Positions 1,262-50,978 of a stretch of DNA of 64,000 nt are shown piece by piece. The notes beneath the pieces are model-generated. The model had not been told where the DNA came from and did no database searches. It saw nothing but the letters and a program-made list of their open reading frames with translations. Position 1 is the first letter of the stretch, and the number at the start of each line of letters is the position of its first letter. The translations under genes and the position numbers were made by a program. The stretch covers positions 45,915-109,914 of the forward strand of contig CAZLQJ010000001.1 of the NCBI GenBank assembly GCA_964561705.1, read 5' to 3'. The stretch is from an uncultured Lachnoclostridium sp. (GTDB lineage: Bacteria; Bacillota; Clostridia; Lachnospirales; Lachnospiraceae).

Positions 1262-4233
1262 AAGTCCTTCCTCTCTGCCTTTTTGCTTTTATGAAATACC
1301 AATGCATAGATTCCGTTCATCAAACCGGAGACTGCTACAAATCCGGCAATTCCCGGAAGAACAGACGCCCCGGACATCATACTTCCAAAAAGAACAGGTC
1401 CTGCAGCTTCTCCGATGTTATCTACAAAATTGTAGATTCCCATGGCGGAATCTTCCCCATATTCCTTGACATCCTTCATTTCTACAAAATATAACTGCCG
1501 CACAGAACTTCCAAAACTTCCTGCTGCTCCCAACAATAAAAGTACGAAAATCAGCATTGACACAGAACTGTTCCAGCCAAATAACAAAAGTGCCGCAAAG
1601 GAAAGCAGACTGGACAGATAGATACTCGTATGTCCCAGATGTTCCGCCATGTAGTTAGTTGCTGCCACACTCAGATACACACTGCACAAAGAATTCAGCA
1701 TCAGCAAAAGGCAAACTGTATTTTCACTAAATCCCATGGCATCTCCATAAATTGGCACATAATAAAATACAAAACTGTTGATGATCACATAGGGTACTTG
1801 TATGAGAAGCAGATAGGAAACCGCTCTTTTGGATCTCCACAATGCTTTTCCAGACGTTTTCTTTCCTGGATCGACCGAAACCTTTGCCACGTATCTACCC
1901 ATAAACCAGAACAATACTGCAACCAGAAGCCATCCCGAAGCCGAACAGACAAAAACGGTTCTCTGTCCTATACTTCCTGCCAGAGATGCTCCCAACATCA
2001 TGCCGCAGTTAATGCCCGAAAGACTTCCTGCATTTAAGATAGAAAACCCTTCCTGACGCACCTGACTGTCCTGTGTATCTGCAATAAAAATATTCAGGGA
2101 GTTGCTGATCAGTCCCATACCTATTCCATTAAAGATCAGTCCCGCCACCAGACACAGATAATCTCCCCCAAAAAACAGGAGCAGATCACCACACATACTT
2201 ACCAGTCCGCTGACAGCTGCAACACATCGAAATGAAAATCTTCGCAGAAGTTTTGCACAAAACAATGAGGTCAATCCAATAAATGCCATATTTAACGTAA
2301 TCGGCAGAGAAGCTGCCAGTTCTCTCGAAATTCCCAAGGAATCTGTTACGAAGCCTGCCGCGTAAACCGGAAGAAAAGAACTTGCGATATTAAATGCAAT
2401 ATAAGTGATGAAAATACTGCATCGAAGCAAATGAAGGGGCATTCCCTCATGATTTTTCTGCTTTTCCTCCTGATATTTCGTCCTTAAGTCAAAGAAGGAT
2501 AAGATTTCCCCAAACAGGAATAAAACGATCAGGATCACCATCACCAGATTCAGCATGATCGAATTTCTCATTTCATCCACCTTGGTTGTGATCACCTCTG
2601 AAGTTGTTCCAATCTCAATCACACCAGCTACCTGACCTGCACTTGTCAGCACCGGCACCCGGACATAAATATAGGAACCTGTCACATCATCTTTCCCGTC
2701 ATTTCTAACAGAATCACCTGTTTCATAGATATATCCCAATTCTTTGGTTTCTTCTTCATCTAAGGGATAATAGGTTCCTATCGAATTATCCAGATAGGCA
2801 ATGGCAAACCCCTTCTTCTCTTCCAGTCGGAGTACATTTCCATACATTTCCCGGACAGACGCATCTTCCCTGTTCAGCGCCAATTCCATGGTCTCCATGA
2901 TCGCTTTGTAATCTTCACCCATATAATCTTCACAGGTTCTTATCCTCTGCAGGCGGTCTCCATCCATCATCCCGCTGGTTGTATATGCCAAAGCGTAAAG
3001 TTTACTGACCAATTCTTCTCTGTAAATACCGGAAAACTGTTCCAAAAGCTGGGTAACGATGATCATGGCAACCAAAGCTGCCGTACCTGCTGCCAAAAGA
3101 CCGCTTCTTTGCACCGTTGATAGTCGAATTTCCTTTACCCGGCTGAAAATACGAAGGATCAACCATAAACCTGAAATCACTGTCAGAACTGTTGTTGCCT
3201 GATAAAGCGTTTCTTCCATCAGATAGGAAAAACTCTTCTCATATGCATAGACCGTGTCTATCTCTGTATGTTCCTGCATCCGCATGGAAATTCCCCAGTC
3301 ATTCCAAATACCTAAGGCAGTCGTTCCATCCTTCTGTAACGCAGAAGTGATCGTTAAGACCTGGCCCTGATCCATATAGGTCTCTAAAGTTCCGCTTTCC
3401 TTTGACAGACGATAGATCTGATTGGTACGGATATCTGTGATATAAAGATTTTCTTCCCCATCGGATGCTAGCCGGTAAAAGGCAGTTTTTCCAATATATT
3501 GTGGATCCCCGGCCGTATCATATAAAATTTCTACCGCATTTTTCCTTCCCTTTAGAACTTTTCCACGCTTATCCAGTGCATAAACCGTCTGCGCCTGAAA
3601 ATCAATTTCGTAATCCTGAATCAGATCAAACGCATTGGGATACGCAAAAAACTGTTCTTCACGGATCTCACCATTTTCCAATGAAATACGAAACATGGAA
3701 AATCCGTCCTGATCAGACTGAACATAGTACAAACTGTTTTCCACACAAGTCAATGCAAACAGTTTGTGCTTATTTACCCATTCTTCATAAGAAATATCCA
3801 AAATGGTATCTTCATAATTTCCATCCCTGTCATACACGAGGATACATTCTCTTCCGATGGCTGACCCCGTTTCATCCCAACTGGCATCCAACAGATAGAT
3901 CTTTCCATCTTCTCCAAATGCCAGGTCTTCCGCATACCAAAAGGTATCGGCCTCCTTCTCATTGCTTTTGAGCAGAAATTCCACCTTTTGATCCCGGTTA
4001 ACCTTTAAAACTCTGGAACGTTCTTCATCGATCACATAGATATTCCCCTGTGCATCTGCCTGTGCCAGATATGGATTGACAAGTTCCACCTCTCTTCCAG
4101 GGCGGATCTCATACCAGTCCTTCCACTCCCTGATACCTGTCAGTGCCAGAAAAAACAGCACAAGCATCAGCACATCCCACTTTAAGATTTTTTTCTGTGT
4201 GACAAATCTTTTGATCTTCTCCCATTTTTTCAT
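1258..4233 (-). CDS. Chimeric membrane protein: N-terminal NHL-like beta-propeller and Cache-like sensor domains fused to a C-terminal 12-TM MFS transporter
   Basis: ORF 1258..4311; the likely start is MKKWEKIKRF at 4233. NHL-like strand motifs are present (GNIYVIDEERSRVLKV, GKIYLLDASWDETG, NLYITDIRTNQIYRL). A ~190-aa domain between TMs ends in GQVAGVIEIGTT. The C-terminal half is typical MFS, with many TMs (LPVYAAGFV, GLIFNGIGMGL, GAAGSFGSS, DNIGEAAGPVLFG). Confidence 0.75.
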   Translation of the reverse strand: MKKWEKIKRFVTQKKILKWDVLMLVLFFLALTGIREWKDWYEIRPGREVELVNPYLAQADAQGNIYVIDEERSRVLKVNRDQKVEFLLKSNEKEADTFWYAEDLAFGEDGKIYLLDASWDETGSAIGRECILVYDRDGNYEDTILDISYEEWVNKHKLFALTCVENSLYYVQSDQDGFSMFRISLENGEIREEQFFAYPNAFDLIQDYEIDFQAQTVYALDKRGKVLKGRKNAVEILYDTAGDPQYIGKTAFYRLASDGEENLYITDIRTNQIYRLSKESGTLETYMDQGQVLTITSALQKDGTTALGIWNDWGISMRMQEHTEIDTVYAYEKSFSYLMEETLYQATTVLTVISGLWLILRIFSRVKEIRLSTVQRSGLLAAGTAALVAMIIVTQLLEQFSGIYREELVSKLYALAYTTSGMMDGDRLQRIRTCEDYMGEDYKAIMETMELALNREDASVREMYGNVLRLEEKKGFAIAYLDNSIGTYYPLDEEETKELGYIYETGDSVRNDGKDDVTGSYIYVRVPVLTSAGQVAGVIEIGTTSEVITTKVDEMRNSIMLNLVMVILIVLFLFGEILSFFDLRTKYQEEKQKNHEGMPLHLLRCSIFITYIAFNIASSFLPVYAAGFVTDSLGISRELAASLPITLNMAFIGLTSLFCAKLLRRFSFRCVAAVSGLVSMCGDLLLFFGGDYLCLVAGLIFNGIGMGLISNSLNIFIADTQDSQVRQEGFSILNAGSLSGINCGMMLGASLAGSIGQRTVFVCSASGWLLVAVLFWFMGRYVAKVSVDPGKKTSGKALWRSKRAVSYLLLIQVPYVIINSFVFYYVPIYGDAMGFSENTVCLLLMLNSLCSVYLSVAATNYMAEHLGHTSIYLSSLLSFAALLLFGWNSSVSMLIFVLLLLGAAGSFGSSVRQLYFVEMKDVKEYGEDSAMGIYNFVDNIGEAAGPVLFGSMMSGASVLPGIAGFVAVSGLMNGIYALVFHKSKKAERKDL

Positions 4234-4249
4234 TTGATCATTTCCCTTC

Positions 4250-5629
4250 TCATTCCCTTGTTGCTTCCAAATATTCCTTATCTTCCAGCGGTGCATTAAA
4301 AATCGTATCACGATGATTTTTACTCAGCCGTTCCGGATAAAGAATAGAAGATAATGTAAATGCTGATTGATGAACCTTTTTGCACTTCCTATAAGAATCT
4401 GTTTCATCCAGGTTATCAATCTGGATGACCTGCTCTGTCCCCCAAAAATAAAAAGGTAGCGCCAGCATCGAAATATAATCGAAAATCGCATCCGTTTTTT
4501 TCCTTTTTGAAGTCATCCGATGGATCAGTCCTGATTTTTGAAAATAAATTTCCCTTTTTTCATGAAATTCCTTACATAATTCCTGATCTCTTTCATGTAA
4601 AACTTTCACTTCAATCTGTGGGTATTTTTTCTTTAAATTTTCAATTCTTTCCAGATAAAGATCGGCAATCTTTCGTGTTTGTGAACGGAAGTCCAAAACA
4701 ATCTGCTCCCGCATCTTTTCCTCCAGAGGTGCCAGTACGGTTTCTAAATACTTCAGATAAGAAATATCCGGAATCGGAATTGCGATCTTCGCCCCAAGAG
4801 CCTTTGCAAATTCAAACAGCACCTCCAGACTTTGCTGTTCCTGTACCGTTACACTCTTTTTCCGGTTTCGAAAGCTGATTTTTTTGATCTTTTGATGCCA
4901 ATGTTCCACATGATCCGCAAAATCTATTTTTCCGGGTTGTTGGTCATATCGTCTCCCACTGCTGAAATCATAGGAAAACGCTCTGCCATCTTTGTGACAG
5001 ATAATCACCTCCACTTCGTATGTTCCAAAAAGACACGGTCCTCCCACGATCCCAATCGTTTTTCCCTCTTCTACTGATTTCCTGATACTTGGAATATCTG
5101 AAAAAAACAGCGGACATTCCCGGATCCAGGGAAGATTAACCGTATGCAGGATTGGAAGCTTTTTTTCAAGATCGGAAAAATCCCCCATGCTCACTGTATT
5201 TTTATATACGAAGGTCTGACGTTTTTTCAGTCCATAGATTTTCTGCATCTCCCATTCTGCTTCTGCTTCATAATAGGCATTCATATCCCTTAAAGCCTTT
5301 CCAATCCCCTGTTTTGCACAGCGAAGTGCCTGAATTTCTGTCCTATGCTCATACCCTGCCGGATCTGCCTTTTTTAATTCTTTTAACTTTCCGGCAATCG
5401 ACCTTTCTTCCTCTTTTAACCTTTGATAGATTTCATTTTGTTTCTTCTGGTCTGTTTTTTCCAAAAAAACATCTTGACTCCATGAATTGTCTATCCATTT
5501 ATCCAAAGTTTCTAATTGAAAGAAATCACCGGCTGTAATTACAAAATCCCGAACCTGTGGATTACATAAAATATAAATTGTTTCTTCTGCTGATTGCTTG
5601 TTTAAGAGTTCATTGATCGATGTTCTCAT
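4250..5629 (-). CDS. Hypothetical cytoplasmic protein (459 aa); no family recognised
   Basis: Long ORF in the operon frame, with 16-22 nt gaps to both neighbours. No TM segments and no motif I can assign. Confidence 0.6.
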   Translation of the reverse strand: MRTSINELLNKQSAEETIYILCNPQVRDFVITAGDFFQLETLDKWIDNSWSQDVFLEKTDQKKQNEIYQRLKEEERSIAGKLKELKKADPAGYEHRTEIQALRCAKQGIGKALRDMNAYYEAEAEWEMQKIYGLKKRQTFVYKNTVSMGDFSDLEKKLPILHTVNLPWIRECPLFFSDIPSIRKSVEEGKTIGIVGGPCLFGTYEVEVIICHKDGRAFSYDFSSGRRYDQQPGKIDFADHVEHWHQKIKKISFRNRKKSVTVQEQQSLEVLFEFAKALGAKIAIPIPDISYLKYLETVLAPLEEKMREQIVLDFRSQTRKIADLYLERIENLKKKYPQIEVKVLHERDQELCKEFHEKREIYFQKSGLIHRMTSKRKKTDAIFDYISMLALPFYFWGTEQVIQIDNLDETDSYRKCKKVHQSAFTLSSILYPERLSKNHRDTIFNAPLEDKEYLEATRE

Positions 5630-5651: not shown

Positions 5652-6641
5652 TTAATATTCTTCTAATTGAATCTGCTTCTTACCTGTATTTTGAATTTCC
5701 TGACACCGGTTGCAAAGATATAGATATTGCTTTGCTGCACCATCCATACGATTTGCCTTTAATACCTCTATAAAATGAAGTCTTGCATCATAAAATTTCT
5801 GTTCCTGAAAAAGGTGCACCCCCTTTTCAAACAAAAGTTTTGTTTTACGTTTCAGATTTCTGCTTACCTGATCGTCTCCGTCATAAACATCATAAATATT
5901 TTCAAAAGCTCCAGAAGAACGTATTAGGATTTTCCCCAGATAACGGCTGTTATAATTTCTTTCAAAATCCCTGATCTGTTCCTTCAGTCCTCCTGTCAGC
6001 AGGATCCGTGCACCATACCGATTTCCGATTTCCTGTAAAAAATCAGCAAATCCCGTAGTTTCTGAGATAGTCAGTGTACCAAATCGTTTTTCATCACCAA
6101 CCATCCCAACCATCACATCTCCGTAGGCAAGCCCCATTGCAAATTCCTGTGCCCCTGTTTCCTTCAAATCCATCGCCTCGCAGATTGAAATCGCTGCTCT
6201 TAATGCTCCTTCCGGACTTTTTAGAAAAAACGCCTTTAGACCGGCATCTACAAACCGGTCTATTTCCCCTTCCTGATATAATACAGATGGAACAACATGC
6301 TTTAGTACATCATTAATATATTGAAAGATTTCTTCTGCTGTTTTGGTACGAATCCAATGAAGAAATCCATGAATATTAAAGGACAACACTGCAGCCGGAA
6401 CCACTTTGGGCTCTCCAAGACGAATTTTTCCTAAAGTTCCATTCTGTAAAAGATCCAGAAGCTGTTTTGGCAGCATTGCCTCCTGCAATGTTTTGTTTTT
6501 TACTGCTTCTTCAGATATGTGAGTGCCTGTACTTACCTGTTGTTTTAGCTTATTGTTCTTTCTGATCAGCCAGAGGAATACTCCTGCAATGCAGCCCCAA
6601 AGGAGGCACAAGAGTATTGTTCCTATTATTTTTGTACTCAT
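5652..6641 (-). CDS. Membrane-anchored protein with a degenerate class III nucleotidyl-cyclase homology domain and a C-terminal helical (TPR-like) region
   Basis: N-terminal TM IIGTILLCLLWGCIAGVFLWLI. The cyclase-like core is AAVLSFNIHGFLHW ... IDRFVDAGLKAFF ... GLAYGDVMVGMVGDEKRFGTLTISETTGFADFLQE ... ARILLTG. Canonical FxDIxGFT reads FNIHGF, and the GDxVNxAxR segment reads SETTGFADF. The RBS AGGGGAGGA lies 16 nt after the PAAR-like stop. Confidence 0.6.
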   Translation of the reverse strand: MSTKIIGTILLCLLWGCIAGVFLWLIRKNNKLKQQVSTGTHISEEAVKNKTLQEAMLPKQLLDLLQNGTLGKIRLGEPKVVPAAVLSFNIHGFLHWIRTKTAEEIFQYINDVLKHVVPSVLYQEGEIDRFVDAGLKAFFLKSPEGALRAAISICEAMDLKETGAQEFAMGLAYGDVMVGMVGDEKRFGTLTISETTGFADFLQEIGNRYGARILLTGGLKEQIRDFERNYNSRYLGKILIRSSGAFENIYDVYDGDDQVSRNLKRKTKLLFEKGVHLFQEQKFYDARLHFIEVLKANRMDGAAKQYLYLCNRCQEIQNTGKKQIQLEEY

Positions 6642-6657: not shown

Positions 6658-7044
6658 CTATTTTACCTGCACATTGACTGTGCTGGGATTCTGTATCTGG
6701 ATCACTCCTCCATAAGCACACATACATTTACTGGTTTGTGTAAGACACGGTTTTCCTCCTACCAGGATTGTGGGACTTCCCGGTGCCCAAGGAGCAGTGA
6801 TCACAGGAATACAAGGCATGGGAGTCAGCACGCCCATTGCCGCTGCTGTTGCCGAAGCCACGGTAGGGTTTGACATACTGCTGCACATTCCAAAAGGCAG
6901 AATATTCACCATTGGTACCTGATCCATGATCGTCGCCATCGGCATCTTGCTCATCACTCTTGCCGCCGGCAAAACTGTTAATGCAGAAGGTGCTGCACCA
7001 AAACTGCACATCAATGTGGCACCGCCAAATACGCCAAAACTCAT
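6658..7044 (-). CDS. DUF4280-type PAAR-like spike-tip protein (Afp10 analogue)
   Basis: The product MSFGVFGGATLMCSFGAAPSALTVLPAARVM...ILPFGMCSSMSNPTVASATAAAMGVLTPMPCIPVITAPWAPGSPTILVGGKPCLTQTSKCMCAYGGVIQI matches the DUF4280 pattern. The start ATG at 7044 overlaps the upstream TGA (ATGA), so the longer ORF 6658..7155 is an extension artefact. Confidence 0.8.
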   Translation of the reverse strand: MSFGVFGGATLMCSFGAAPSALTVLPAARVMSKMPMATIMDQVPMVNILPFGMCSSMSNPTVASATAAAMGVLTPMPCIPVITAPWAPGSPTILVGGKPCLTQTSKCMCAYGGVIQIQNPSTVNVQVK

Positions 7045-7823
7045 CCTTTTTTCTCCTCTTCGTAAATTTCTTCTGTGATTTTGTTTTCCTTCTCTGGAAA
7101 CAGCTGCAAGATCCTGCAGATTTCCGGTTCCTGTTCTTTTCCTTTGATCAGGCAAATACTGTTTTCCGTCGGAATATGACGGATCGGCAGATAAAACCGG
7201 CCTTCCCGATCTGCTGTTACTTCATACACCGGGTAGATTGAAGTTCCCACCTTTTTATAACTATTTTTCAACGGATGTTCCATCTGACACACTTCATCCC
7301 TTTGATCAGTAATCCTAAAAAATTCTCTTGTTTCTCCATTTTTAATACAGAGTGTTTTTCCTTCTAAATGTATGATTTCCGGCAAAAAGATGGAGATTTC
7401 CTTCCTCTTCGTTTTCGGTTCATAATCGTATAAAAGCTTATAATTTTTCTTCTGTTCCGGAAACAACAATCGTATCCGGCTATATGGCCGAATCTTCCCT
7501 TTAATACAGGTCGCTCCTGCCGGAAGCGGATAAGCAGCATTTGGAAGCATACGGATCTGAAACACCTGTATTCCATTTCCAAGAGGAAATTCCAATACCT
7601 GTTTCTGATAAAGCGGATCTTCCATGCAAATGCTTACACGGCTTCCTTCTAGATCACAAAACACATGATATCCATCCATTTTACGGATTGACTGTCTGCT
7701 TCCGTCTTCTGTATACATACGAAAAGAAGGGCTTTTGATCACATTTTCTGTAAAATCGTCTATTGGAAGGATTACCAGAGATACTTCTCTTTTTAACCTT
7801 ACAGTCATATAGTTCCTATTCAT
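7041..7823 (-). CDS. eCIS-associated hypothetical protein (260 aa)
   Basis: Its ATG directly follows the TAG of the cap gene (TAGATG at 7821-7826), and its TGA overlaps the ATG of the PAAR-like gene. No recognisable motif; acidic C-terminal tail EEIYEEEKKG. Confidence 0.6.
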   Translation of the reverse strand: MNRNYMTVRLKREVSLVILPIDDFTENVIKSPSFRMYTEDGSRQSIRKMDGYHVFCDLEGSRVSICMEDPLYQKQVLEFPLGNGIQVFQIRMLPNAAYPLPAGATCIKGKIRPYSRIRLLFPEQKKNYKLLYDYEPKTKRKEISIFLPEIIHLEGKTLCIKNGETREFFRITDQRDEVCQMEHPLKNSYKKVGTSIYPVYEVTADREGRFYLPIRHIPTENSICLIKGKEQEPEICRILQLFPEKENKITEEIYEEEKKG

Positions 7824-8393
7824 CTATTCCTCCACGCGAAATTCTACGCTGCCAACCCGTTGGATGTCTCTTGTTTTTGAAGATTCTATGGAAACCGGTC
7901 CCACTTTATAGAAAAGAGAAGGTTTCACCGCAAGATTCGGAAAATTCCATAATTTGATCTTTTCATCCATCTCCAGCTTTCTCATTTCCAAACGAACTCC
8001 TTCACGTCCTTTGCCGCTGATAAATTCCATACTTTCTGTATCCAGTACTCCATAATCTCTGAAAATCTGGATGACTCTTCCCATGATCCTTTGTTCTTCT
8101 TCTGCCCGGAATTTCACATCACTGGCTGAAAATGCAGTAATCATATAGGAAAGAGACAGATACACCGGCGGATATTTTTGTCGTTTGATCCCATCAGAAA
8201 CCATTCCACTCTGTCGGTAATCCTCACTCTCACTCACATCATACAAATGCACACATAAGGTCAAATCTCCTCTGTCAGCCGGTGTTGCCAATCCGATCGC
8301 ATCCGCATTTTGAATGATCTGGGGCACCAATTCTTTTCTCAGCAGCCGCACCAATGCATTCCCAGTTTCCGTAATAACCGTATAACTGCCCAT
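7824..8393 (-). CDS. DUF4255-type tail terminator/cap protein (Afp16/Pvc16 N-terminal-domain-like)
   Basis: The sequence MGSYTVITETGNALVRLLRKELVPQII...DLTLCVHLYDVSESEDYRQ...PPVYLSLSYMITAFS fits the DUF4255 pattern. A GGAGG lies 8 nt upstream of ATG 8393, and the longer track ORF would overlap the previous gene. Confidence 0.8.
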   Translation of the reverse strand: MGSYTVITETGNALVRLLRKELVPQIIQNADAIGLATPADRGDLTLCVHLYDVSESEDYRQSGMVSDGIKRQKYPPVYLSLSYMITAFSASDVKFRAEEEQRIMGRVIQIFRDYGVLDTESMEFISGKGREGVRLEMRKLEMDEKIKLWNFPNLAVKPSLFYKVGPVSIESSKTRDIQRVGSVEFRVEE

Positions 8394-8418
8394 GACTGCT
8401 TCCTCCATTTCTTTCTGT

Positions 8419-9933
8419 TTATTCTGCTGATTCCGGATTCTCCTGTATTCCCGAAGCTTCCGGTGCCGCCTCAGCCAGCGGTGTATTTTTGTAAAATGTA
8501 CCTTCATAAACCAGCACACCGGTCGCGATGTCATACATTGCACCTTTTCCATTATAGGTTCCCATTAAAAATTCTCCTTCGTAGGCCAGAACACTTTCTA
8601 TGTAATATTTTCCGGATCCGTCATATTCTCCTTCCCTAAAACTTCCTTCATAGATCAATGCCTGTGTTTTGGGATCGTAAAGTTTTCCTTCTCCATCATA
8701 CAGACCTCCATAAAAGCTGCCTTCATATAAGAGATTTCCCGTTCCTTCATCATAGAGCCGTCCATCGCCGGACCACTCACCCTTTGCAAAATTACCATCA
8801 TATACAAGAATTCCTGTTTCTTCCTGATATTGACGACCCGCTCCCTCGTAGCTACCTTCCAGGAAACTGCCTTCGTAGATCAAAATTTCATCCAAAAACT
8901 GTTTTCCCTGACCTTCATAAAGCCCTGTCTTTACCTCTCCTTCATAGATCAGACTGCCATCTTCGTCATAAATTCGCGCTGTTCCCTGATCCGGCTGATC
9001 CTGGGAAAAACTCCCCTCATAGATTAAAGTTCCATCCTTGGCATAGGATCTTCCGGTCCCGGATTTTTTCCCCTGAGAAAATTCACCTTCATAGGATAAC
9101 CATCCAACTTCATCATAAAGTATTCCTTTCCCATCATAGAGTCCCTGAGAAAATTCGCCTTCATAAAAAACTTTTCCGTCCTCATTATAAAGGGTTCCCT
9201 TTCCATCATAGAGTCCCTGGGAAAATCCTCCACGAAACAGTTCTTTTCCATTCTCATGATATAAAATTCCTGTTCCGTCATAACATCCCTGGGAGAATCC
9301 TCCCTGATATAATACAGTGCCATTTTCACGATACAAGGTTCCGGTGCCATCATATCCATTGGCATGAAATTCTCCCCGATATTTCAATGTGCCATCCGTA
9401 TAATAACTTTCCCCCTGACCACTATACTGTTCCGATTGAAATTCTCCCCGATACAGAAGATTTCCTTCATAGTCATATAAAGTTCCCTGACCATTGATTC
9501 TTCCTTCCGACAAGGTTCCTGTAAACAAGACGTTATCAAGTGCAAGATCTCCCACCAAGCGCACTTTTCCGTTGTATCCGATCATTTCCTGGGAATTGAT
9601 GACCATCGTCTTTGTCAGATATCTTGACTGGATCCATGGATAGATCACCTTTGTAATCAGCAATGGCAGAAAAATCAAAAGAAGCAATGCTACATACAGC
9701 AGTTTCTTCGCAATATACTGATCTCCCACCGCAACATATTCTTTTAAAGACTTTGGTTTTTCTCCAGCCTGCTTGATCTTTGTCTTTACGTCACCGCTTA
9801 CCTTTCCAACAATTGATGTTGGACTGACTACCCGCACAATCTTTCGATACAACAGTAGAAATGGTGCCGTAACCGTCCGTATAATTCTGCGTATTCCATA
9901 GAACAATGCATTTTTTATGTTAAAACTTGACAT
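8419..9933 (-). CDS. Single-pass membrane protein with about 14-15 MORN repeats
   Basis: Basic N-terminus, then the TM LLYVALLLLIFLPLLITKVIY. After it come tandem 23-aa units of the form YEGEFSQGLYDGKGILYDEDG (Y-x-G-x-F-x-x-G-x-x-x-G-x-G). Confidence 0.85.
   Translation of the reverse strand: MSSFNIKNALFYGIRRIIRTVTAPFLLLYRKIVRVVSPTSIVGKVSGDVKTKIKQAGEKPKSLKEYVAVGDQYIAKKLLYVALLLLIFLPLLITKVIYPWIQSRYLTKTMVINSQEMIGYNGKVRLVGDLALDNVLFTGTLSEGRINGQGTLYDYEGNLLYRGEFQSEQYSGQGESYYTDGTLKYRGEFHANGYDGTGTLYRENGTVLYQGGFSQGCYDGTGILYHENGKELFRGGFSQGLYDGKGTLYNEDGKVFYEGEFSQGLYDGKGILYDEVGWLSYEGEFSQGKKSGTGRSYAKDGTLIYEGSFSQDQPDQGTARIYDEDGSLIYEGEVKTGLYEGQGKQFLDEILIYEGSFLEGSYEGAGRQYQEETGILVYDGNFAKGEWSGDGRLYDEGTGNLLYEGSFYGGLYDGEGKLYDPKTQALIYEGSFREGEYDGSGKYYIESVLAYEGEFLMGTYNGKGAMYDIATGVLVYEGTFYKNTPLAEAAPEASGIQENPESAE
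8450..9546 (-). repeat. In-frame tandem coding repeats (69-nt period) encoding the MORN array
   Basis: The YxGxF...GxG units recur every 23 aa across this span of the translation. The repeat also creates the spurious antisense ORF 8658..9497. Confidence 0.8.
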
Positions 9934-9935
9934 TC

Positions 9936-10826
9936 TTACTCTTCTCCATTCTCCTGTACAACGGCTTCCGGTTCCTCGACGATAAGATCACCGATCTGAC
10001 TCATAGTCTGGATCATTGTCTGGGAACTGCTGTGATCCTGCAGTTTCGTGATCACATACACCACTGCCGCCACCACGATCACAACTGCAAGGATCTTTTG
10101 ACCAATCTTCATCAGCTTCTTCATTCTTTCCCAAAAACGAAACAGAAATGTCTTTGGCAACGGTTCCTTTTGATCTTCCTTTAAAAAGTCTTCATAAACC
10201 GGCAGAAATTCCTGAAACATCTGGATATAACTGTTCCACATTCCACTTTCCAATCCCTGAAGATATTCATTCAGCCGAGGATAGATCTGTTTTTTCGCTT
10301 CATCTGAAAATAACAGTAAAAAAATTTTCCTAAGCTGCAGTCCCACATCCTGAACAGTAAACTCTTCAAATTGTTCCACCTGTTTCAAATGATAATTCCA
10401 ATGGATTTCCAGACTCCTGCTGACCGTGATCTGATCTGTTTCCAATCCGTTCCATGCAAAATATGGATGAGGGTTTTGCATTAACAGCCGTTCAAAAATT
10501 CCTCTTGCAATCTCAGCCCGCTCTCTTCGTCCGCAATATTCCCTCTGAAGATGCTCCGTCAGACTCTGATCCTTGCTGTAGCATAGGACGATCAGGAAAT
10601 TCTCATTTTCCCGAAAACATTCCAGATAATCCGTAAACTCCCGTCCTTTGATCTTTTCTTCTAAAAAAATCGTCAGACGTTTTGCCAGCACAGCATCTGT
10701 GATGCGTATAAGCAGACGTGAGACTTCTTCTCCTGTCTGTTCCGTACACAAAAATTCTTCTGTTTTATTGGTTCCTCCTAAATGCCGCATTACCTGGTAA
10801 CTGCGGTCAAAGTTGGTAAATCTCAT
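9936..10826 (-). CDS. Tail-anchored membrane protein: ~240-aa cytoplasmic domain, C-terminal TM and an acidic tail
   Basis: The TM ILAVVIVVAAVVYVITKL is preceded by the basic stretch RMKKLMKIGQK and followed by EEPEAVVQENGEE. The start overlaps the upstream stop (ATGA at 10823-10826), and the stop lies 2 nt before the MORN gene start. Confidence 0.6.
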   Translation of the reverse strand: MRFTNFDRSYQVMRHLGGTNKTEEFLCTEQTGEEVSRLLIRITDAVLAKRLTIFLEEKIKGREFTDYLECFRENENFLIVLCYSKDQSLTEHLQREYCGRRERAEIARGIFERLLMQNPHPYFAWNGLETDQITVSRSLEIHWNYHLKQVEQFEEFTVQDVGLQLRKIFLLLFSDEAKKQIYPRLNEYLQGLESGMWNSYIQMFQEFLPVYEDFLKEDQKEPLPKTFLFRFWERMKKLMKIGQKILAVVIVVAAVVYVITKLQDHSSSQTMIQTMSQIGDLIVEEPEAVVQENGEE

Positions 10827-12559
10827 TGATCTGCACCCTTTTCTCTTACGATTACAAAGATTGACGCTTTTACTTCCGGATACGCTGCACTTACAGCAGT
10901 TACCTCGTATACACCTGCAGTATTTGGTGCAGTATACATTCCATTGGCATCAATGGTTCCTCCATGATCTTTTACCTGCCAGATCAGACTGGTATCCGGC
11001 ATATTGCTGCATACGGCTTCTAAATAATAACTCTCTCTGATATTCAGATTTAATACATTTGGTCGGATAAAGATCCTTCGCTCCTTCTTTTCTTCGATCA
11101 GTTCTTTCCGGTCACGGATTGCCGTCCAGTGGATCCTTAATCGGTCTCTGGAAGTCGTTGCCTGCATTTTCAGCCCGATCACAAAAGTTCCTTTTTGTGC
11201 ATCTGCCTTGGCAGCCAGTTCCACTTGGGCTACATCCTCCTGAAAGATTCCCGGCGCACCAAAATAAGTTTCCGAATCCTCTTCCCCTTCCAGACTTAAA
11301 ACGATCGTTGTCTCTCCCATTCCCAAGCCATGGGAGATCTCCCGACTGAAGAAACGTTTGCCTTTGGCTGCTCCAATCCCGAAGGAAAAAATCTCTACGC
11401 CTTCTGCGATCAACGGACCGCATGTTTCCCCTTTGGTATTTCCGACCCGTTCATTTTCCGGACCGTTCATTCGTTCCTGTCCTGTATACTGCGGACTGTT
11501 CATCTTCCAAAGGGCATCCTGCAAAAATGGGCTTGCTATATACTGCCCAAAAGGCATTTTTTCCACTTCATCGATCACAACTGTATCGCCAGCCCGCAAA
11601 AGGGTAATCTTTGCAAGATAAAGATCCGGATTTCCACTGTCCTTTAAAATCTGATCCATTCCCTTTTCATAATAGCTTTTCTGTACTTTTTCCTTACCGG
11701 AACCATTGCCGATCTGGATCACTAACCGGCCCTTGGCCTCCTCCTGAATCTGATTCTGGCCAATCCGTAATTTGAAACTGTCCGGTATCACACAAATACT
11801 TCCCTGTGTATTTTTTACACCTAGGGTATCCAGCTGATAGGTATATGTATAACGTCCGGATTTTTCAAACAGTCTCTCATCAAAGGAAACCGTCATATGC
11901 GATCTGCCCTCATAGGAAAGACATACCAGATCCAGTTCATAAGAAAATGCGAAATGATCCTGCTGTCCCATGTTCTCCACTTCGATCCTCAATTCTGTCA
12001 CATCTTTTCCGCTGGCAAATTTCGGCAAAACCTGTCGGATTCTAATGCCCTTTCCCCAATAAATCGTCTGTGAACTTTCAAAAAGACTGCTGCTTGATAA
12101 ATTGGTCGTTTCCGGTTCATTTCTGGTTAAGAACAGTCTGTATCCTTCCCGGATCTTATTATATGCGGTTCCATTTTTTTCTCCGCCATTGCTGATACTG
12201 TGTACAGCCTGTGCCTCTTCTTCCTCATAAGCTGCACAAAGATATAAATATCCTGTATTGCGATCTTCTTCATAATCAGAAAACCCTTCCAGCATACGCA
12301 AAGGTCTTACCACAGGTTCATCGATTACGATTTCCCGTCCAAAATCATCAATTGCCAAACCATTTTCAATCAGAAGACTTGTGTCATCCACTGCTACCAC
12401 ATTCATTCCTGTCACAACACCTGCTCCATAAAGGAAGCGATTCATCATTCGTCTCTTATCATTTCCATATTTCTGCTCTAGACGAAAATCATCCACGGAG
12501 AGCAGTTTTCCATAGTAATAATTGTTGCGCTCAAAAGGAAAAAAATTTGTATTCTTCAT
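10823..12559 (-). CDS. Putative tail-fibre or baseplate-peripheral protein with a C-terminal Ig-like (Big_2-like) domain (Afp13-position analogue)
   Basis: The N-terminus FFPFERNNYYYGKLLSVDDFRLEQKYGNDKRRMMNRFLYGAGVVTGMNV is a motif I associate with eCIS loci. The C-terminus is Big_2-like: SLIWQVKDHGGTIDANGMYTAPNTAGVYEVTAVSAAYPEVKASIFVIV. ATGA overlaps occur at both ends. Confidence 0.55.
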   Translation of the reverse strand: MKNTNFFPFERNNYYYGKLLSVDDFRLEQKYGNDKRRMMNRFLYGAGVVTGMNVVAVDDTSLLIENGLAIDDFGREIVIDEPVVRPLRMLEGFSDYEEDRNTGYLYLCAAYEEEEAQAVHSISNGGEKNGTAYNKIREGYRLFLTRNEPETTNLSSSSLFESSQTIYWGKGIRIRQVLPKFASGKDVTELRIEVENMGQQDHFAFSYELDLVCLSYEGRSHMTVSFDERLFEKSGRYTYTYQLDTLGVKNTQGSICVIPDSFKLRIGQNQIQEEAKGRLVIQIGNGSGKEKVQKSYYEKGMDQILKDSGNPDLYLAKITLLRAGDTVVIDEVEKMPFGQYIASPFLQDALWKMNSPQYTGQERMNGPENERVGNTKGETCGPLIAEGVEIFSFGIGAAKGKRFFSREISHGLGMGETTIVLSLEGEEDSETYFGAPGIFQEDVAQVELAAKADAQKGTFVIGLKMQATTSRDRLRIHWTAIRDRKELIEEKKERRIFIRPNVLNLNIRESYYLEAVCSNMPDTSLIWQVKDHGGTIDANGMYTAPNTAGVYEVTAVSAAYPEVKASIFVIVREKGADQ

Positions 12560-13698
12560 GTCATGCTCCTTCTCTCTTCTTCACCTGTCAAAGTGGCAAA
12601 TGCCAATCTGGTATTTGTATCTAAGGCCGCCTTTTCATATTGGCCCAGAACACTGTTCACACCCAGATAGGAATATCCGTCTGTAAAAATATAAGGTTTT
12701 AATACAATCAGATTTACCTCCATCTGAACCGGCTTAATCTGTTCTAAAATTCTTAAAAGGGTCTGATGCTCCTGATATGCCGGAATATTTTCTTCCTTCA
12801 CCAAAACGGTAAAACATCCTGGATCATCCTCATACAGCTGTTCCAAAAGTTTTCCGTAGGATCCATTGTTTTGATAAACCGACCAATCCTGCCATTCGAT
12901 CACAAATGGCTTTTCTCCTGTATACAGTTCTACCAAAAGCTCAATTCCCCTTCTGGTACCTCTGCTGGCTTGAAATTCCATCGCATGCTCCAGCAAAAAT
13001 CGCAACTGACTTTCTCTCCACATATAAGGAGTTTCAATGTCCAGCCATCCTGCCAATTCTTCCAAAAACTGCTGATCCGCCGTCTTCGGGTCAAGTTGCT
13101 GTGGAAATGATTTGATTTCCCCGCCGACATCCTCATACAGAGATTGGAAGACCGCCAGATATCGATCCAGAAAGGACTGATTTCCCATCTGCTTTTGATA
13201 CAATTCCGGAAGATATTTCATCCAGCTCTGTGCCGGAAATGTGATCATAAACTCTCCCAGTGCCACAGGTTCATCTGTCTGTGGATAAACTTCCAAAAGA
13301 AACCAAAGATATCTTCCTTCCAGACCATGGAGCAAAATATCCTGACTGTAACTCATTTCCTTTTTTAAAAACGGTTCCAGTCTTTTCTTTTTTTCCGACA
13401 ATGACAGCTCCGCAGATTTTAACAGTTCTTTTAGATTCATGGTTTCTCCCTGCTCCAGATACTGAATGGTATCCGATGCATAAAAGGAAATTCTTATGGC
13501 TGCTGACCCCTTCTTTTTTTGTTTTCCGGTCATTCGATGCCATATCGTTCCCTCTTTTCCACTGTCCAGGATCCTGGAAAAAAAAGCTGCCTTTCCAAAA
13601 AAACCTGTTTCGGTTACCAGCCCTGAAGGACTTCCCTCCATATGTTCCGCATAGCCTCTGTTATAATCGGAAGTTTTATTGAAAACAAAATATTTCAT
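12556..13698 (-). CDS. Phage tail protein I-like baseplate wedge protein (P2 gpI / Afp12-like)
   Basis: The motif FLDRYLAVFQSLYEDVGGEIKSFPQQLDPKTADQQFLEELAGWLDIETPYMWRESQLRFLLEHAMEFQASRGTRRGIELLVELYTG matches the conserved phage tail region/gpI pattern. Confidence 0.75.
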   Translation of the reverse strand: MKYFVFNKTSDYNRGYAEHMEGSPSGLVTETGFFGKAAFFSRILDSGKEGTIWHRMTGKQKKKGSAAIRISFYASDTIQYLEQGETMNLKELLKSAELSLSEKKKRLEPFLKKEMSYSQDILLHGLEGRYLWFLLEVYPQTDEPVALGEFMITFPAQSWMKYLPELYQKQMGNQSFLDRYLAVFQSLYEDVGGEIKSFPQQLDPKTADQQFLEELAGWLDIETPYMWRESQLRFLLEHAMEFQASRGTRRGIELLVELYTGEKPFVIEWQDWSVYQNNGSYGKLLEQLYEDDPGCFTVLVKEENIPAYQEHQTLLRILEQIKPVQMEVNLIVLKPYIFTDGYSYLGVNSVLGQYEKAALDTNTRLAFATLTGEEERRSMT

Positions 13699-13718
13699 AC
13701 CTTCCTACCTCTTCTTTT

Positions 13719-15821
13719 CTATTCATCGATCGAACAGGAACAATGGATCTGAATCTCATCTGCAATCCCGTTTCCCGGAAACAACAGATCTCCATATACA
13801 TTCCTACGAATTCCATTTCCTTTGGCATCCAGCACCAGAGATCGTACCCCCAGTACACACTCTAGCCGGTCAATACAGCCATAAAGTCCGCTGTAAGAAA
13901 TTTGACCGCCAAATTGCTTTTGCAGCGGGGCAATATAGTTTTCAACTGCCTGACAAATTCTTTCCTTTGCTCCCTGATACTGTGGTCTTGTAGTCACCTC
14001 CAGATAAACGGATACTGTCCCATATGCCGGTGATAGCATTCTAAAACTTACACCAAGCATTCTTCCCGGCTCCAGATACTGACAGATATTCTCGATCAAT
14101 GCCGGTTTTAATCGTGGTCTTTTCTCAAGGCTTAAAGGCTTTACAACCATTTGAATCTCATTTCCACCTCCCGGACTTGTAAATTCTCCTGTTCCTGCCA
14201 ATGCCTTGCAGCTTTCAATCCGAAGCCCCGGCGTTTTTCGGATTGCCCGCTCATAATCTTCTGCTGTGACCATATTTCTTGCTTCTGTTAATTCCTTTCG
14301 CACCCTGGCAAATGCTGCTGAAAGTGATTCTTCCTCCATACCGCCTGCTGCATCTCTAGGATTCCACGCTACGGACTTTTCTAAGGATTTTAAAGTAAAA
14401 TGATCAATCTTTCCCTTCTTTACATTTCCTCCGCTTCCTAGAACTCTCGTATAAGATACCAGAAGAATTTTTCCCTCTGGTGCCATCCCGTGAATGCTGT
14501 CCCCAAATCGAATTTGACCATTGGCACAATCCGCAATATAATGCCTGTCTTCCGGCCCCGAACCGGAAAAATCTCTTTTTTTCTCCCATTTTCGGTAACA
14601 CCCCGGCTCTTCCGGATCCTCGATCAAAAGTTCCAGATTCTCAGAAGATCCCCTTGTTTCATCCAGGAAGAAGATCTCATTGGGAAAGCCACTTCCTTTG
14701 CCTATAACTTGATGCGCTGTATACCATTCTTCCTCTTTTGAAACCAATATGTAAAAAGTTCCATTTTCAAATTCCTGTAATGTAACATCTGACAGCCAGA
14801 TCCTTAATACGCCTTCTTCTTTTCTGGTCTCTTTGATCACAACCCTTTGATACCGTTCCTCCCTGCACTGATAGACCTGAAATTCTCCCGCTTCACAAAG
14901 TCCGTGAGAAATCCATAAAACTGGCTCATTTTCGTCACAAATTTCTTTTTCTGCTTCCAAAAATACCGCAACTGTTTCTTTTTGTGTCACCTTTAACGTG
15001 TTGACATCCAAAAATCTTAATACCGGCGGCATTTCATACTGGCTGTCTTTTAACTCCATTCTAAGGAAATATCCCAATTCCCCATCAATCTGTCTTTCCT
15101 GCATTTCTCCCGGTACACGAAAAGTCAGCTGTCCGTCAAATAAAAATCCAAAGGTTGTATCTTTTAAAATCTCCAATTCCTGATAACATTCTCCATTCCA
15201 AAAAGTAAAACGGATCTTTGCCAGAGGAAGCGTATCTTTTTGTGCCGGATTTCTTGGACATTCTGTCTCCTCCGCCTCCCAGCAGGTCAGATTGATCGTT
15301 TCATTGGCCGGCAGTGCTTTTGAAAATCCCAGATAAAATACAGTTCCCGTTAACGCTTCACGCCCAAAAGGATAAAAGGCCAGATCATGTCCAAGTTCCA
15401 GCTGCTCTCTGTCAAGAAAACTAACTTTGCGATTTTTCCATCCAAATGCACATTGAATACATACGCCCGGAAGCAGTTGCTCCTCCGTCGTTTCAAAAGG
15501 TACCCCCGAAGCTTCCAATCCTGTTCCTTTCAAAATATGAAGCGGAGTTTCAGCCTTTGTACAAACAAAGGCTGAAGCACTTTTTTGATGCCTTACCCGG
15601 GTTCCTAAAAGTTTCAGATATTTTTCTCTGTGAAGTTCTCCTATATGATCGAGCTCATACTGCTGGATTTCTTTCAGCCATGCAAAAAGTTCCACCAGTG
15701 TGATGCCCGGATCATGATAATTAAAATCTGTCCATTCCGGATAATAACCTGCAATTCTCTTTTTTGCTGTTTCCAGCATCTCCTCAAATGTGATTTGATC
15801 TAAATGAATATCCGGCAACAT
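13719..15821 (-). CDS. Baseplate J / gp6-like baseplate protein (700 aa)
   Basis: The N-terminus is YYPEWTDFNYHDPGITLVELFAW, and the C-terminal part contains VTAEDYERAIRKTPGLRIESCKAL and GGNEIQMVVKP. Both are typical of Baseplate_J. Confidence 0.8.
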   Translation of the reverse strand: MLPDIHLDQITFEEMLETAKKRIAGYYPEWTDFNYHDPGITLVELFAWLKEIQQYELDHIGELHREKYLKLLGTRVRHQKSASAFVCTKAETPLHILKGTGLEASGVPFETTEEQLLPGVCIQCAFGWKNRKVSFLDREQLELGHDLAFYPFGREALTGTVFYLGFSKALPANETINLTCWEAEETECPRNPAQKDTLPLAKIRFTFWNGECYQELEILKDTTFGFLFDGQLTFRVPGEMQERQIDGELGYFLRMELKDSQYEMPPVLRFLDVNTLKVTQKETVAVFLEAEKEICDENEPVLWISHGLCEAGEFQVYQCREERYQRVVIKETRKEEGVLRIWLSDVTLQEFENGTFYILVSKEEEWYTAHQVIGKGSGFPNEIFFLDETRGSSENLELLIEDPEEPGCYRKWEKKRDFSGSGPEDRHYIADCANGQIRFGDSIHGMAPEGKILLVSYTRVLGSGGNVKKGKIDHFTLKSLEKSVAWNPRDAAGGMEEESLSAAFARVRKELTEARNMVTAEDYERAIRKTPGLRIESCKALAGTGEFTSPGGGNEIQMVVKPLSLEKRPRLKPALIENICQYLEPGRMLGVSFRMLSPAYGTVSVYLEVTTRPQYQGAKERICQAVENYIAPLQKQFGGQISYSGLYGCIDRLECVLGVRSLVLDAKGNGIRRNVYGDLLFPGNGIADEIQIHCSCSIDE

Positions 15822-48401: not shown

Positions 48402-49181
48402 TTATCTAAGATACTGACGCATAACCTTCAATGCATGTTTTTCCAGCCGGCTCACCTGTGCCTGGGAAATACCGATTTCATCTGCGACCTCCATCTGGGT
48501 CTTTCCCTCATAAAATCGCAGATCAATGATATGTTGTTCTCTGGGGGCCAGCCGTTTCATTGCCTCCTGCAAAGAAATTTCTTCCACCCACTGCTCTTCC
48601 TTATTTTTCTTGTCACTGATCTGATCCATCACATAAAGGGTGTCGCCTCCCTCCGTATAGACCGGTTCATATAAACTGACCGGACTTTGGATTGCATCCA
48701 TAGCAACCACCACATCTTCCTCCGGTACCTGGATCATTTCCGCAATCTCCTTCACCGTCGGTTCCTGGGAATGTTTTTTCATATAATCTTCCTTGGCATA
48801 AATTGCCTTATAAGCAATATCCCGCAGAGAACGGCTGACACGAATCGCATTGGAATTATCCCGCAAATATCTTCGCAGTTCTCCTGCAACCATCGGCACT
48901 GCATAGGTCGAAAACTTCACCATCATCTCCGGCTTAAAATTATCAATTGCCTTGATCAATCCAATGCATCCTATCTGAAACAGATCATCCGGACATTCAT
49001 TACTGTTAGAAAAACGTTTGATCACACTAAGTACAAGTCTTAAATTTCCCTGAATATATTTTTCTCTGGCCTCTTTATCCCCTTGTTTGATCCTTCGGAA
49101 CAGTTCTTCTTTTTCTTCCTCTTTCAGTATCGGCAATTTGGATGTATTCACACCGCAAATTTCAACTTTTCCCTGAACCAT
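48402..49181 (-). CDS. sigG: Sporulation sigma factor G
   Basis: The product MVQGKVEICGVNTSKLPILKEEEKEELFRRIKQGDKEAREKYIQGNLRLVLSVIKRF matches SigG. The synteny spoIIGA-sigE-sigG supports it. AAGGAG lies upstream of ATG 49181. Confidence 0.9.
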   Translation of the reverse strand: MVQGKVEICGVNTSKLPILKEEEKEELFRRIKQGDKEAREKYIQGNLRLVLSVIKRFSNSNECPDDLFQIGCIGLIKAIDNFKPEMMVKFSTYAVPMVAGELRRYLRDNSNAIRVSRSLRDIAYKAIYAKEDYMKKHSQEPTVKEIAEMIQVPEEDVVVAMDAIQSPVSLYEPVYTEGGDTLYVMDQISDKKNKEEQWVEEISLQEAMKRLAPREQHIIDLRFYEGKTQMEVADEIGISQAQVSRLEKHALKVMRQYLR

Positions 49182-49283
49182 TGCTGCTCTCCTTATTTGT
49201 CTTAGACTTCTAAGAAAAGCATTCCCCCGTAATTCCGGATTTATTCCAAATTCGCCTTCCAAAGACTTCCAGATTTAGGAAGT

Positions 49284-50024: not shown

Positions 50025-50036
50025 GTTTTCCCCTCC

Positions 50037-50825: not shown

Positions 50826-50851
50826 AATGTTTTCTCCTTGTCTGCAAGGAC

Positions 50852-50884
50852 ATTATACGAAATGGAATTTTTTTCCTTTGTCAA
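50852..50884 (-). promoter_or_regulatory. spoIIG-type promoter with an over-long spacer
   Basis: On the minus strand, TTGACA (50884-50879) is followed by a 21-nt spacer and TATAAT (50857-50852). Imperfect 0A-box-like sequences TGACAAA and TGTCAAT lie at or upstream of the -35. Confidence 0.5.
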
Positions 50885-50961: not shown

Positions 50962-50978
50962 TTTCTCCATAGATCTAT

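Follow-up and report, generated by a model that had tools for sequence, protein, structure and literature searches.

How the particle of a contractile injection system (CIS) might be linked to the envelope of a thick-walled Gram-positive bacterium is a question raised by a locus of an uncultured Lachnoclostridium sp. (Lachnospiraceae; GenBank assembly GCA_964561705.1, contig CAZLQJ010000001.1). The locus lies within the 64,000-nucleotide stretch analyzed here (positions 45,915 to 109,914 of the contig, hereafter the window). Among its structural genes, two genes, named A and B below, stand between the gene of a 578-aa "fibre-like" protein and the cap gene. An earlier note on this DNA had described them as tightly coupled genes for membrane proteins, the first tail-anchored with a short acidic ectodomain, the second single-pass with its N-terminus inside and 14-15 MORN repeats turned outward by the positive-inside rule, and had proposed that the CIS is membrane-associated. 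Both open reading frames (ORFs) were recovered on the minus strand (Table 1), and their tight packing and predicted topologies are borne out by the analyses below. The note missed that A, as judged from its structural model, is a tail-anchored pseudokinase having no VAIK, HRD or DFG motif. We put at about even the chance that A and B are the two halves of a split "receptor pseudokinase", through which a CIS assembled in the cytoplasm is docked or triggered at the membrane.

A predicted pseudokinase and a neighbouring MORN-repeat protein

The genes follow each other with almost no intervening sequence. The stop codon (TGA) of the upstream 578-aa gene overlaps the ATG of A (ATGA at 10826-10823), the ATG of B is found 2 nt after the TAA of A, with a GGAG motif within the 3' end of A, and the cap gene begins 10-25 nt past the stop of B. 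The product of A has one hydrophobic peak (Kyte-Doolittle 2.5 over 19 aa, residues ~241-262) and no other hydrophobic segment above 1.6. The transmembrane (TM) helix is preceded by a lysine-rich flank, LFRFWERMKKLMKIGQ, containing 5 K/R, and is followed by a C-terminal tail of 34 aa with 0 K/R and 8 D/E. The location of this helix (245-262 of 296 residues) and the short tail devoid of K/R are those of a tail-anchored protein, for which insertion into the membrane is predicted. In the AlphaFold2 model, the TM segment is part of a continuous helix (residues 227-264). Beyond the membrane, the tail carries the motif QIGDLIVE (residues 277-284, nt 9975-9998), whose family form is F..IG[TD].[ED]I. 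Across 42 diverse members, I278 is near-invariant and G279 invariant, and the IG-x3-hydrophobic motif is present in 54 of the 56 full-length A proteins from metagenomic loci.

Sequence searches with A gave nothing usable (no Pfam match at E<=0.01, no PHROG match, and nothing at E<=10 when a narrow A profile was compared with PDB sequences), so that its fold became visible only by structure prediction. The AlphaFold2 model, built on 16 homologues, has a mean per-residue confidence (pLDDT) of 82.6, rising to 88-97 over residues 1-219. When the model was compared with the PDB by Foldseek, the matches at E<=1e-3 numbered more than 1891. The 50 that were listed are without exception protein kinases, with a probability of 1.00 and template modelling scores of 0.37-0.54; they include the bacterial receptor kinases Staphylococcus aureus PknB/Stk1 and Mycobacterium tuberculosis PknB. 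The best structural matches (4eqm_A, 1o6y, 3ori_A, 9ymt) are among the receptor Hanks kinases. The modelled domain has the elements of a Hanks-type kinase fold, namely an N-lobe with beta-sheet and helix C, and a helical C-lobe. A broader profile of the A family gave weak matches to PDB sequences (best E 3.6e-4), most of them protein kinases, with alignments running from the N-lobe through the catalytic-loop region.

The catalytic motifs themselves are lost. In the alignment with CDPK1, the HRD position stands opposite a non-conserved family consensus, "yea", and none of the VAIK, HRD and DFG positions shows a conserved Lys or Asp among 136 A-family members. In the window protein, YFAWNGLETDQ is found at the catalytic loop and HWNY at the DFG region. 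The Pfam Pkinase model (PF00069) was found below threshold in 4 of 42 family members (best E 0.005) and gave no match for the window protein. The reading of A as an active Ser/Thr kinase was rejected because of the motif loss at VAIK, HRD and DFG. Since the family has no conserved catalytic residues, a scaffold role is likelier for A than a role in phosphorylation.

The product of B also has a single hydrophobic peak (2.6, residues ~78-100). After this TM helix, the sequence is acidic (30 K/R vs 66 D/E) and is mostly made of 14 repeats, each 23-24 aa long and phased by G-x-G. These belong to the MORN family (PF02493; E 3.3e-13, 49.1 bits for a cut-off of 22.5), and ten orthologues match the same model with E values from 5.5e-9 to 4.5e-54. 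Orthologues are 387-968 aa long and have 6-30 MORN repeats; they keep the TM helix and a juxtamembrane motif, P[WF].Q..F.TKTM.VNS..M.GYSGKVRL. Basic residues prevail in their N-tails (mean 14.8 K/R vs 5.0 D/E in 54 orthologues) and acidic ones in their C-terminal parts (mean 43 K/R vs 87 D/E), a charge distribution that predicts an external MORN array. In five orthologues, the N-tail seen in the window protein is missing, and the N-terminus is signal-anchor-like only. A search for an extra wall-binding domain in long orthologues found only MORN in ten metagenomic orthologues. The C-terminus of the Aminipila terrae protein gave a single weak BamE-like match.

The variation of the MORN copy number from 6 to 30 is what would be expected of a diversifying surface-binding array. 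It could therefore be proposed that B, with A as its partner, is a surface adhesin or a target-recognition protein of the producer cell, tied to the CIS by co-expression only, or else that the pair serves in self-protection or immunity. However, either role would leave unexplained the cytoplasmic domain of A and the strict adjacency to a baseplate gene. Moreover, the juxtamembrane motifs of B and the tail motif of A are kept across very divergent loci, which points to a fixed part of a machine. The candidate toxin is encoded ~20 kb upstream and has no A/B-like neighbours. We consider this whole group of explanations very unlikely.

Distribution of the pair and fused orthologues

The breadth of the family was evaluated by an exhaustive A profile search and by a metagenome scan using the neighbouring gene. 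The first yielded 321 cluster representatives, nearly all of ~285-300 aa. The second gave 80 metagenomic loci, mostly from gut, retrieved through the 578-aa gene, 60 of which have enough downstream sequence to contain A. A and B, with the same TM layout and in the same slot, were found in the 13 loci fetched with A and in most of the 80 fetched with the neighbouring gene; such a recurrence means that the arrangement is not due to chance. The order P2_I, fibre-like protein, A, B, cap, 260-aa protein, DUF4280 and membrane signalling proteins is common to all 13 A-retrieved loci, and holds down to 17% identity between A proteins. In the metagenomic set, the gene immediately after the fibre-like one is A in 55 of 60 loci, and 38 of 41 contain B. 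Among the exceptions to adjacency, two distant loci do not have the pair (L064, L093), two others have a fibre-like gene that is truncated (L089, L092), and L083 has a fusion; in L084, A was detected beyond the adjacency window used. A large HAMP protein separates A from B in one sub-lineage. Overall, the pair is present almost throughout this CIS lineage and counts among its core components.

The carriers that could be named for A comprise metagenome-assembled genomes (MAGs) of Lachnospiraceae, Roseburia and Acetatifactor among them, together with the isolate Aminipila terrae. The 578-aa gene family is also found in Desulfotomaculaceae and Peptococcaceae MAGs. Gut metagenomes of human, mouse and rabbit commonly contain the lineage, and no relative of A was found in IMG/VR viral contigs. 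In A. terrae (L095, CP047591.1), B is split into overlapping ORFs of 208 and 471 aa, through either a frameshift or a sequencing error, and a protein with an SLH (wall-binding) domain ends the locus; the split B and this protein account for the regions 12687-14605 and 19389-21302.

Fused orthologues bear on the relation between the two proteins. Three A-MORN fusion proteins with two types of junction (P0022 on the one hand, P0151 and P0154 on the other) and the L083 fusion each have exactly one TM helix. In P0022 (687 aa), the pseudokinase is joined directly to the pre-TM segment of B, so that the A domain replaces B residues 1-56. In P0151, P0154 and the L083 fusion, the pseudokinase and one TM helix are joined to the juxtamembrane motif and MORN array of B. 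The genomic context was checked for P0022, P0151 and L083, and all three fusions stand exactly where A and B are found elsewhere, after the fibre-like gene and before the cap. Having no signal peptide, an N-terminal domain of 220 residues has to remain cytoplasmic, and the MORN array must consequently be outside. These fusions are the strongest topological evidence available and place the pseudokinase and the MORN array on opposite faces of the membrane. As Rosetta-stone evidence, they further suggest that A and B act as one unit. Because the ecto-tail of A and residues 1-56 of B are lost in the fusions, these two segments are candidates for non-covalent contacts between the separate proteins.

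Comparison with known systems and proposed role

The best PDB sequence match of the sheath is 9ezm_A from the CIS of Halogeometricum borinquense (E 6.5e-130, 437 bits), followed by the Streptomyces CIS (8bky/9gtp; E 1.7e-108, 367 bits), whereas matches to PVC, AFP, AlgoCIS and the thylakoid CIS (tCIS) reach only 1e-34 to 1e-56. The 975-aa Baseplate_J protein (Cis11-like) is closest to Streptomyces Cis11 (E 2.5e-35). The H. borinquense CIS is membrane-bound, perpendicular to the cytoplasmic membrane as seen by cryo-electron tomography, and resembles a type VI secretion system (T6SS; Zachs et al., 2024, PMC11566945). The same authors name Bacillota CIS as the closest relatives (PMC11566945). Their clade IIa, defined by the phylogeny of Cis2 and Cis11, unites Bacillota with haloarchaea and is a candidate placement for the window CIS. 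The putative anchor of this T6SS-like system is Hbor_38620, the presence of which correlates with the membrane-bound mode (PMC11566945). In Streptomyces coelicolor, CisA is the membrane adaptor of a cytoplasmic CIS (Casu et al., 2025, PMC12237407). It is bitopic, with a cytoplasmic N-terminus and an extracytoplasmic C-terminal domain proposed to be a sensor. CisA is found outside the purified particle, is needed for contraction in situ and is predicted to bind Cis11, a peripheral baseplate protein (PMC12237407). Since the characterized relatives depend on, or correlate with, a membrane protein encoded in the cluster, a non-secreted, membrane-engaging mode is favored for the window CIS. The proposal of a membrane-associated CIS has thus gained comparative support (core pair, fusions, affinity of the sheath), with the pair as a putative anchor, trigger or pure sensor.

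The concept of a membrane adaptor encoded in the CIS cluster is already established with CisA and Hbor_38620. What is new here is the protein family and its split into a two-gene unit, with which Firmicutes CIS would have their first candidate adaptor. Like A/B, CisA is encoded in the cluster of a closely related CIS. However, CisA is one protein, in which an N-terminal region that is largely disordered is combined with an ectodomain resembling a solute-binding protein. A/B is set apart from this described architecture by a well-folded cytoplasmic pseudokinase and by a MORN ectodomain supplied by a second gene. Hbor_38620 is, like A, a cluster-associated membrane protein with a cytoplasmic domain, and the sheath of its CIS is the best solved match. 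It differs by its six TM helices and its ~150-aa cytoplasmic domain, with no kinase fold or MORN repeat reported, and its gene is upstream of the core cluster and not between baseplate and cap genes. A/B would add a third solution, non-homologous to CisA and Hbor_38620, and is a concrete candidate for the link between particle and envelope of phage-tail-like systems in thick-walled Gram-positives. A full-text literature search returned no paper combining CIS with pseudokinases, the papers returned for CIS with MORN, Lachnospiraceae or Firmicutes transmembrane proteins do not describe the pair, and none of these contexts comes up in a review from 2025 on the pseudokinase families of bacteria.

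The closest architectural parallel is found in another type of machine. YukC of the type VIIb secretion system (T7SSb) consists of a pseudokinase (residues 3-206), a TM helix (220-243) and an extracellular part, and is a catalytically dead interaction hub (PMC9600267, PMC13037476). Its partner EsaA/YueB associates with it mainly via TM regions and has an elongated ectodomain that can span peptidoglycan. TraF, a pseudokinase homologous to YukC/EssB, was recently reported in a Gram-positive type IV secretion system (T4SS; PMC9600267, PMC13037476). The layout of A (pseudokinase 1-219, TM 245-262) is near-equal in size to that of YukC. Nevertheless, the ecto-part of A is a 34-aa tail where that of YukC is a 140-aa helical domain, B is a single-pass MORN protein where EsaA is polytopic, and the window machine is a contractile tail where T7SSb is a secretion system with an FtsK ATPase. 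The Pfam YukC model (PF10140) matches 1 of 42 A-family members, weakly (E 2.5e-4), and gave no match for the window protein. No EssB/YukC chain was found among the 60 listed of 93 PDB sequence matches or among the top 50 structural matches. A therefore resembles EssB/YukC in architecture only. By analogy, A/B would be similar to CisA in role and to the YukC/EsaA pair of T7SSb in architecture, and it would extend to contractile systems the theme of membrane pseudokinases organizing Gram-positive secretion machines (T7SSb, T4SS).

A second parallel is with the receptor Hanks kinases PknB, PrkC and Stk1, whose plan (kinase fold, TM helix, repeat ectodomain) is shared by the fused A-B orthologues. 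In most loci, however, the receptor is split into two genes; A has no catalytic motifs, and the ectodomain is made of MORN repeats and not of PASTA or vWA as in receptor kinases or PpkA. This likeness leads to the main rival explanation, in which the pair does nothing but signal. A/B would then be a transmembrane sensor with the MORN array as input and the pseudokinase as allosteric output, controlling the assembly, loading or expression of the CIS without holding the particle, and acting together with the cyclase-like protein, the NHL-MFS fusion and the HAMP-PP2C phosphatase encoded downstream. The receptor Ser/Thr kinase architecture, the PASTA kinases among the structural matches and the composition of the fusions are in line with this explanation. 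So are the conservation in the operon of a PP2C sensor phosphatase and of a cyclase-homology protein, and the presence of BTAD and LuxR regulators upstream. The corresponding comparison is the threonine-phosphorylation pathway PpkA/PppA/Fha of the Pseudomonas H1-T6SS. There, the PP2C phosphatase PppA shares an operon with PpkA, and the PP2C phosphatase of the window operon may be compared with it. It should, however, be noted that the sole kinase-like protein of the operon is A itself, which is catalytically dead and cannot supply a phospho-signal, and that no FHA domain or other phospho-reader was detected in the operon. Moreover, A and B are located among baseplate and cap genes, one of which A overlaps, and not with the regulators. 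Overall, a signalling role alone seems to us unlikely, without being negligible.

Docking or triggering by the split pseudokinase can be described as follows. A would be inserted tail-first, with its dead kinase-fold domain on the cytoplasmic face of the membrane. There, this domain may serve as a scaffold for the periphery of the baseplate, that is, for the 578-aa protein or for Cis11/Cis12-like proteins. The 578-aa protein has no Pfam, PHROG or PDB sequence match. In its AlphaFold2 model, 44 N-terminal residues, highly conserved and modelled as disordered, precede a chain of Ig-like beta-sandwiches that ends in a Big_2-like C-terminus. The model is that of a short arm and not of a trimeric fibre of the classical type, and the protein is possibly Cis13-like. 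The ATGA overlap of its gene with A and its conserved N-terminus, disordered in isolation, make it an obvious candidate for docking to the pseudokinase.

B would span the membrane once, and its elongated acidic MORN array would reach into or through the thick wall, where it may anchor the complex or sense a signal from the envelope or from contact. In crystal structures, a MORN repeat measures ~1 nm, so that arrays of 6-30 repeats would be comparable to the thickness of a Gram-positive wall. A and B would probably associate via their TM helices and the conserved ecto-tail motif of A, in a hetero-oligomeric complex. Engagement of the baseplate with this complex would set the particle at the membrane and license contraction. 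Two outcomes can be envisaged. The spike (base_V with its DUF4280 tip) and the ADP-ribosyltransferase may be driven through the cell's own envelope into a neighbour, as in the archaeal relative. Alternatively, the shot may kill the producer, as in Streptomyces. The PAAR-like DUF4280 tip and the payload with its double ADP-ribosyltransferase make us lean slightly toward delivery to another cell. As the lineage is common in the gut and carries such a payload, the way it acts matters for interactions between bacteria or with the host in this environment.

Docking or triggering is supported by the tight packing of A/B with structural baseplate and cap genes, by searches that found no lysis cassette in the locus and no A relative in viral contigs, and, by analogy, by the membrane pseudokinases that are structural hubs of Gram-positive secretion machines (YukC/EssB, TraF). 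Several points weigh against it. The contacts of A with B and with the baseplate are ones that we infer, and the external topology of the MORN array is a prediction. Neither the model nor the sequence of the 578-aa protein matches a solved CIS baseplate chain. As in secreted extracellular CIS (eCIS), the operon has two AAA+ ATPases of the Afp15 type and a tape measure resembling that of Afp14. The operon tail is rich in signalling proteins (cyclase-like, HAMP-PP2C, NHL-MFS), and A/B could for this reason be part of a sensory rather than a mechanical module. B looks frameshifted in A. terrae, the sole cultured carrier found. Finally, to our knowledge, outward firing through a thick Gram-positive wall is without precedent. 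A more specific form of the proposal is put forward as tentative and rather doubtful: in monoderm Clostridia of the gut, A/B would form the trans-envelope membrane complex of a contractile, T6SS-like weapon anchored to the cell, with the pseudokinase as the foot that holds the baseplate and the MORN array as a stalk across the peptidoglycan, a logic parallel to that of YukC/EsaA in T7SSb. If true, this would be the first "Gram-positive T6SS" architecture, widespread in Lachnospiraceae of the human and animal gut.

The earlier note had also considered that the pair might be a wall- or lipid-binding release factor. In this explanation, A/B would perturb the membrane or the wall, in the manner of a holin or spanin or by recruiting an autolysin, and thereby free extracellular CIS particles. 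An egress route would indeed be needed if the particles are secreted, since, as the note had stated, no holin or endolysin is seen in the locus. AAA+ and tape-measure genes of the eCIS type are present, and the MORN array is predicted to be in the wall compartment. However, a folded pseudokinase of 220 aa combined with a repeat array of 400-900 aa is unlike any known holin, spanin or lysin, no hydrolase domain was found in A, B or their orthologues, and the nearest characterized CIS relatives are not released. Positive evidence for this suggestion did not emerge from our analysis, and we judge it very improbable.

The operon and its chromosomal context

The left side of the window is occupied over 41 kb by one long CIS locus on the minus strand, in a genome with a GC content of 42% (Table 1). 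Pfam searches identified sheath, tube, gp25, Baseplate_J, P2_I, spike, Pvc16 cap and AAA+ ATPase in one operon, which is therefore a CIS gene cluster. Its core set (sheath, tubes, gp25, two Baseplate_J, P2_I, spike, Pvc16 cap, AAA+ and tape measure) is shared with Afp, PVC, AlgoCIS and tCIS. We know of no membrane proteins in the Afp and PVC operons. As summarized in a study of the Streptomyces system (PMC12237407), tCIS anchors via a baseplate extension and not by separate TM proteins.

Table 1. Features of the CIS locus in the order of transcription (window coordinates).
Feature	Position (nt)	Strand	Basis or remark
719-aa orphan	39100-41259	minus	first in transcription order
AAA+ ATPase, Afp15-like	36918-39086	minus	after the 719-aa orphan
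LuxR-type regulator and AAA/Trans_reg_C/BTAD regulator		minus	between the two AAA+ ATPase genes
Second AAA+ ATPase, Afp15-like	31794-33575	minus	
656-aa protein, two ADP-ribosyltransferase exotoxin domains	29803-31773	minus	Pfam ADPrib_exo_Tox, E 1e-30, two stretches
Sheath	27091-28836	minus	followed by two gp19-type tubes and a tail-assembly-chaperone-like ORF
1232-aa tape-measure-like protein	21800-25498	minus	by position; Afp14-like
CIS_tube+LysM, GPD-like, spike (Phage_base_V), gp25		minus	after the tape-measure-like gene
Two Baseplate_J proteins (975 and 700 aa), then Tail_P2_I		minus	before the 578-aa gene
578-aa "fibre-like" protein	10823-12559	minus	between Tail_P2_I and A
Gene A, 296-aa tail-anchored pseudokinase (predicted)	9936-10826	minus	ORF
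A, residues 1-219: kinase-fold domain without catalytic motifs, cytoplasmic (predicted)	10170-10826	minus	AlphaFold2, pLDDT 88-97
A, residues 245-262: single C-terminal TM helix	10041-10094	minus	hydropathy
A, residues 263-296: short acidic ecto-tail	9939-10040	minus	composition
Gene B, 504-aa bitopic MORN-repeat protein	8419-9933	minus	ORF
B, residues 1-77: basic cytoplasmic N-tail	9703-9933	minus	16 K/R, 4 D/E
B, residues 78-100: TM helix	9634-9702	minus	hydropathy peak 2.6; kept in orthologues
B, residues ~137-480: 14 MORN repeats, predicted external	8494-9525	minus	repeat phasing, positive-inside rule
Cap / tail terminator, Pvc16_N	7824-8408	minus	Pfam, E 2.8e-26; downstream of B
260-aa orphan	7041-7823	minus	always next after the cap gene; conserved
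DUF4280 (PAAR-like) protein	6658-7044	minus	ATGA overlap with the stop of the 260-aa orphan
329-aa protein, N-terminal TM, cyclase-homology-like domain	5652-6641	minus	operon tail
1017-aa NHL / TM / MFS fusion membrane protein	1258-4311	minus	Pfam MFS_1 5.5e-28, weak NHL
HAMP-PP2C (SpoIIE-type) membrane sensor phosphatase	2-1261	minus	cut at the window edge; Pfam SpoIIE 1.9e-11, HAMP 1.6e-4

The 656-aa protein with two ADP-ribosyltransferase domains is likely the payload of the CIS. It is encoded directly downstream of an AAA+ ATPase, and its N-terminus contains short direct peptide repeats (VEREM...VERM). Of the two Afp15-like ATPases (31794-33575 and 36918-39086), the second has a WHD N-domain. 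The 1232-aa protein in the position of the tape measure gave no family match; it is highly acidic and contains many repeats (ENIENIENIE and TDRNV-type), and its length suggests an unusually long tail. The cap gene starts at 8408 or 8393, the latter being preceded by a GGAGGA ribosome-binding site. For the 260-aa orphan that follows, no family or PHROG match was obtained.

The tail of the operon encodes membrane-bound signalling proteins. The domain of the 329-aa protein is a divergent class III cyclase-homology-like domain ("AVLSFNIHGF...FVDAGL"), which also forms the C-terminus of HAMP proteins of 900-980 aa in L010 (7085-9817), L013 and L095 (16433-19366). The 329-aa protein is conserved in L001-L010 and in many metagenomic loci, and the Pfam Guanylate_cyc model reaches threshold only in the A. 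terrae homologue. Its presence suggests that cyclic-nucleotide signalling is linked to the CIS. The 1017-aa protein consists of an N-terminal TM helix, an NHL-like beta-propeller region, additional TM helices and a C-terminal transporter domain of the major facilitator superfamily (MFS). It is conserved at the operon tail in L002, L004, L005 and L008, with 58-59% identity in several loci. The stop of its gene overlaps the ATG of the phosphatase gene (ATGA), the last of the operon. The phosphatase is organized as a TM helix, an extracytoplasmic domain, a second TM helix, HAMP and PP2C/SpoIIE, and homologues follow the locus in L001, L002 and L008.

Searches of Pfam and PHROGs detected no holin or endolysin family in the sizeable ORFs of the operon or of its flanks. 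The right part of the window (48402-63715) is made of chromosomal housekeeping genes, which encode two penicillin-binding proteins, MurD, FtsZ, a sigma-70-family factor and ABC transporters. A holin, an endolysin or a prophage origin was rejected, given the absence of lysis families, the nature of the flanks (chromosomal division and cell-wall, or dcw, and sporulation-sigma genes) and the IMG/VR result for A. With cell-division, cell-wall and sigma-factor genes as its flanks, the CIS locus is not on an obvious prophage or plasmid.

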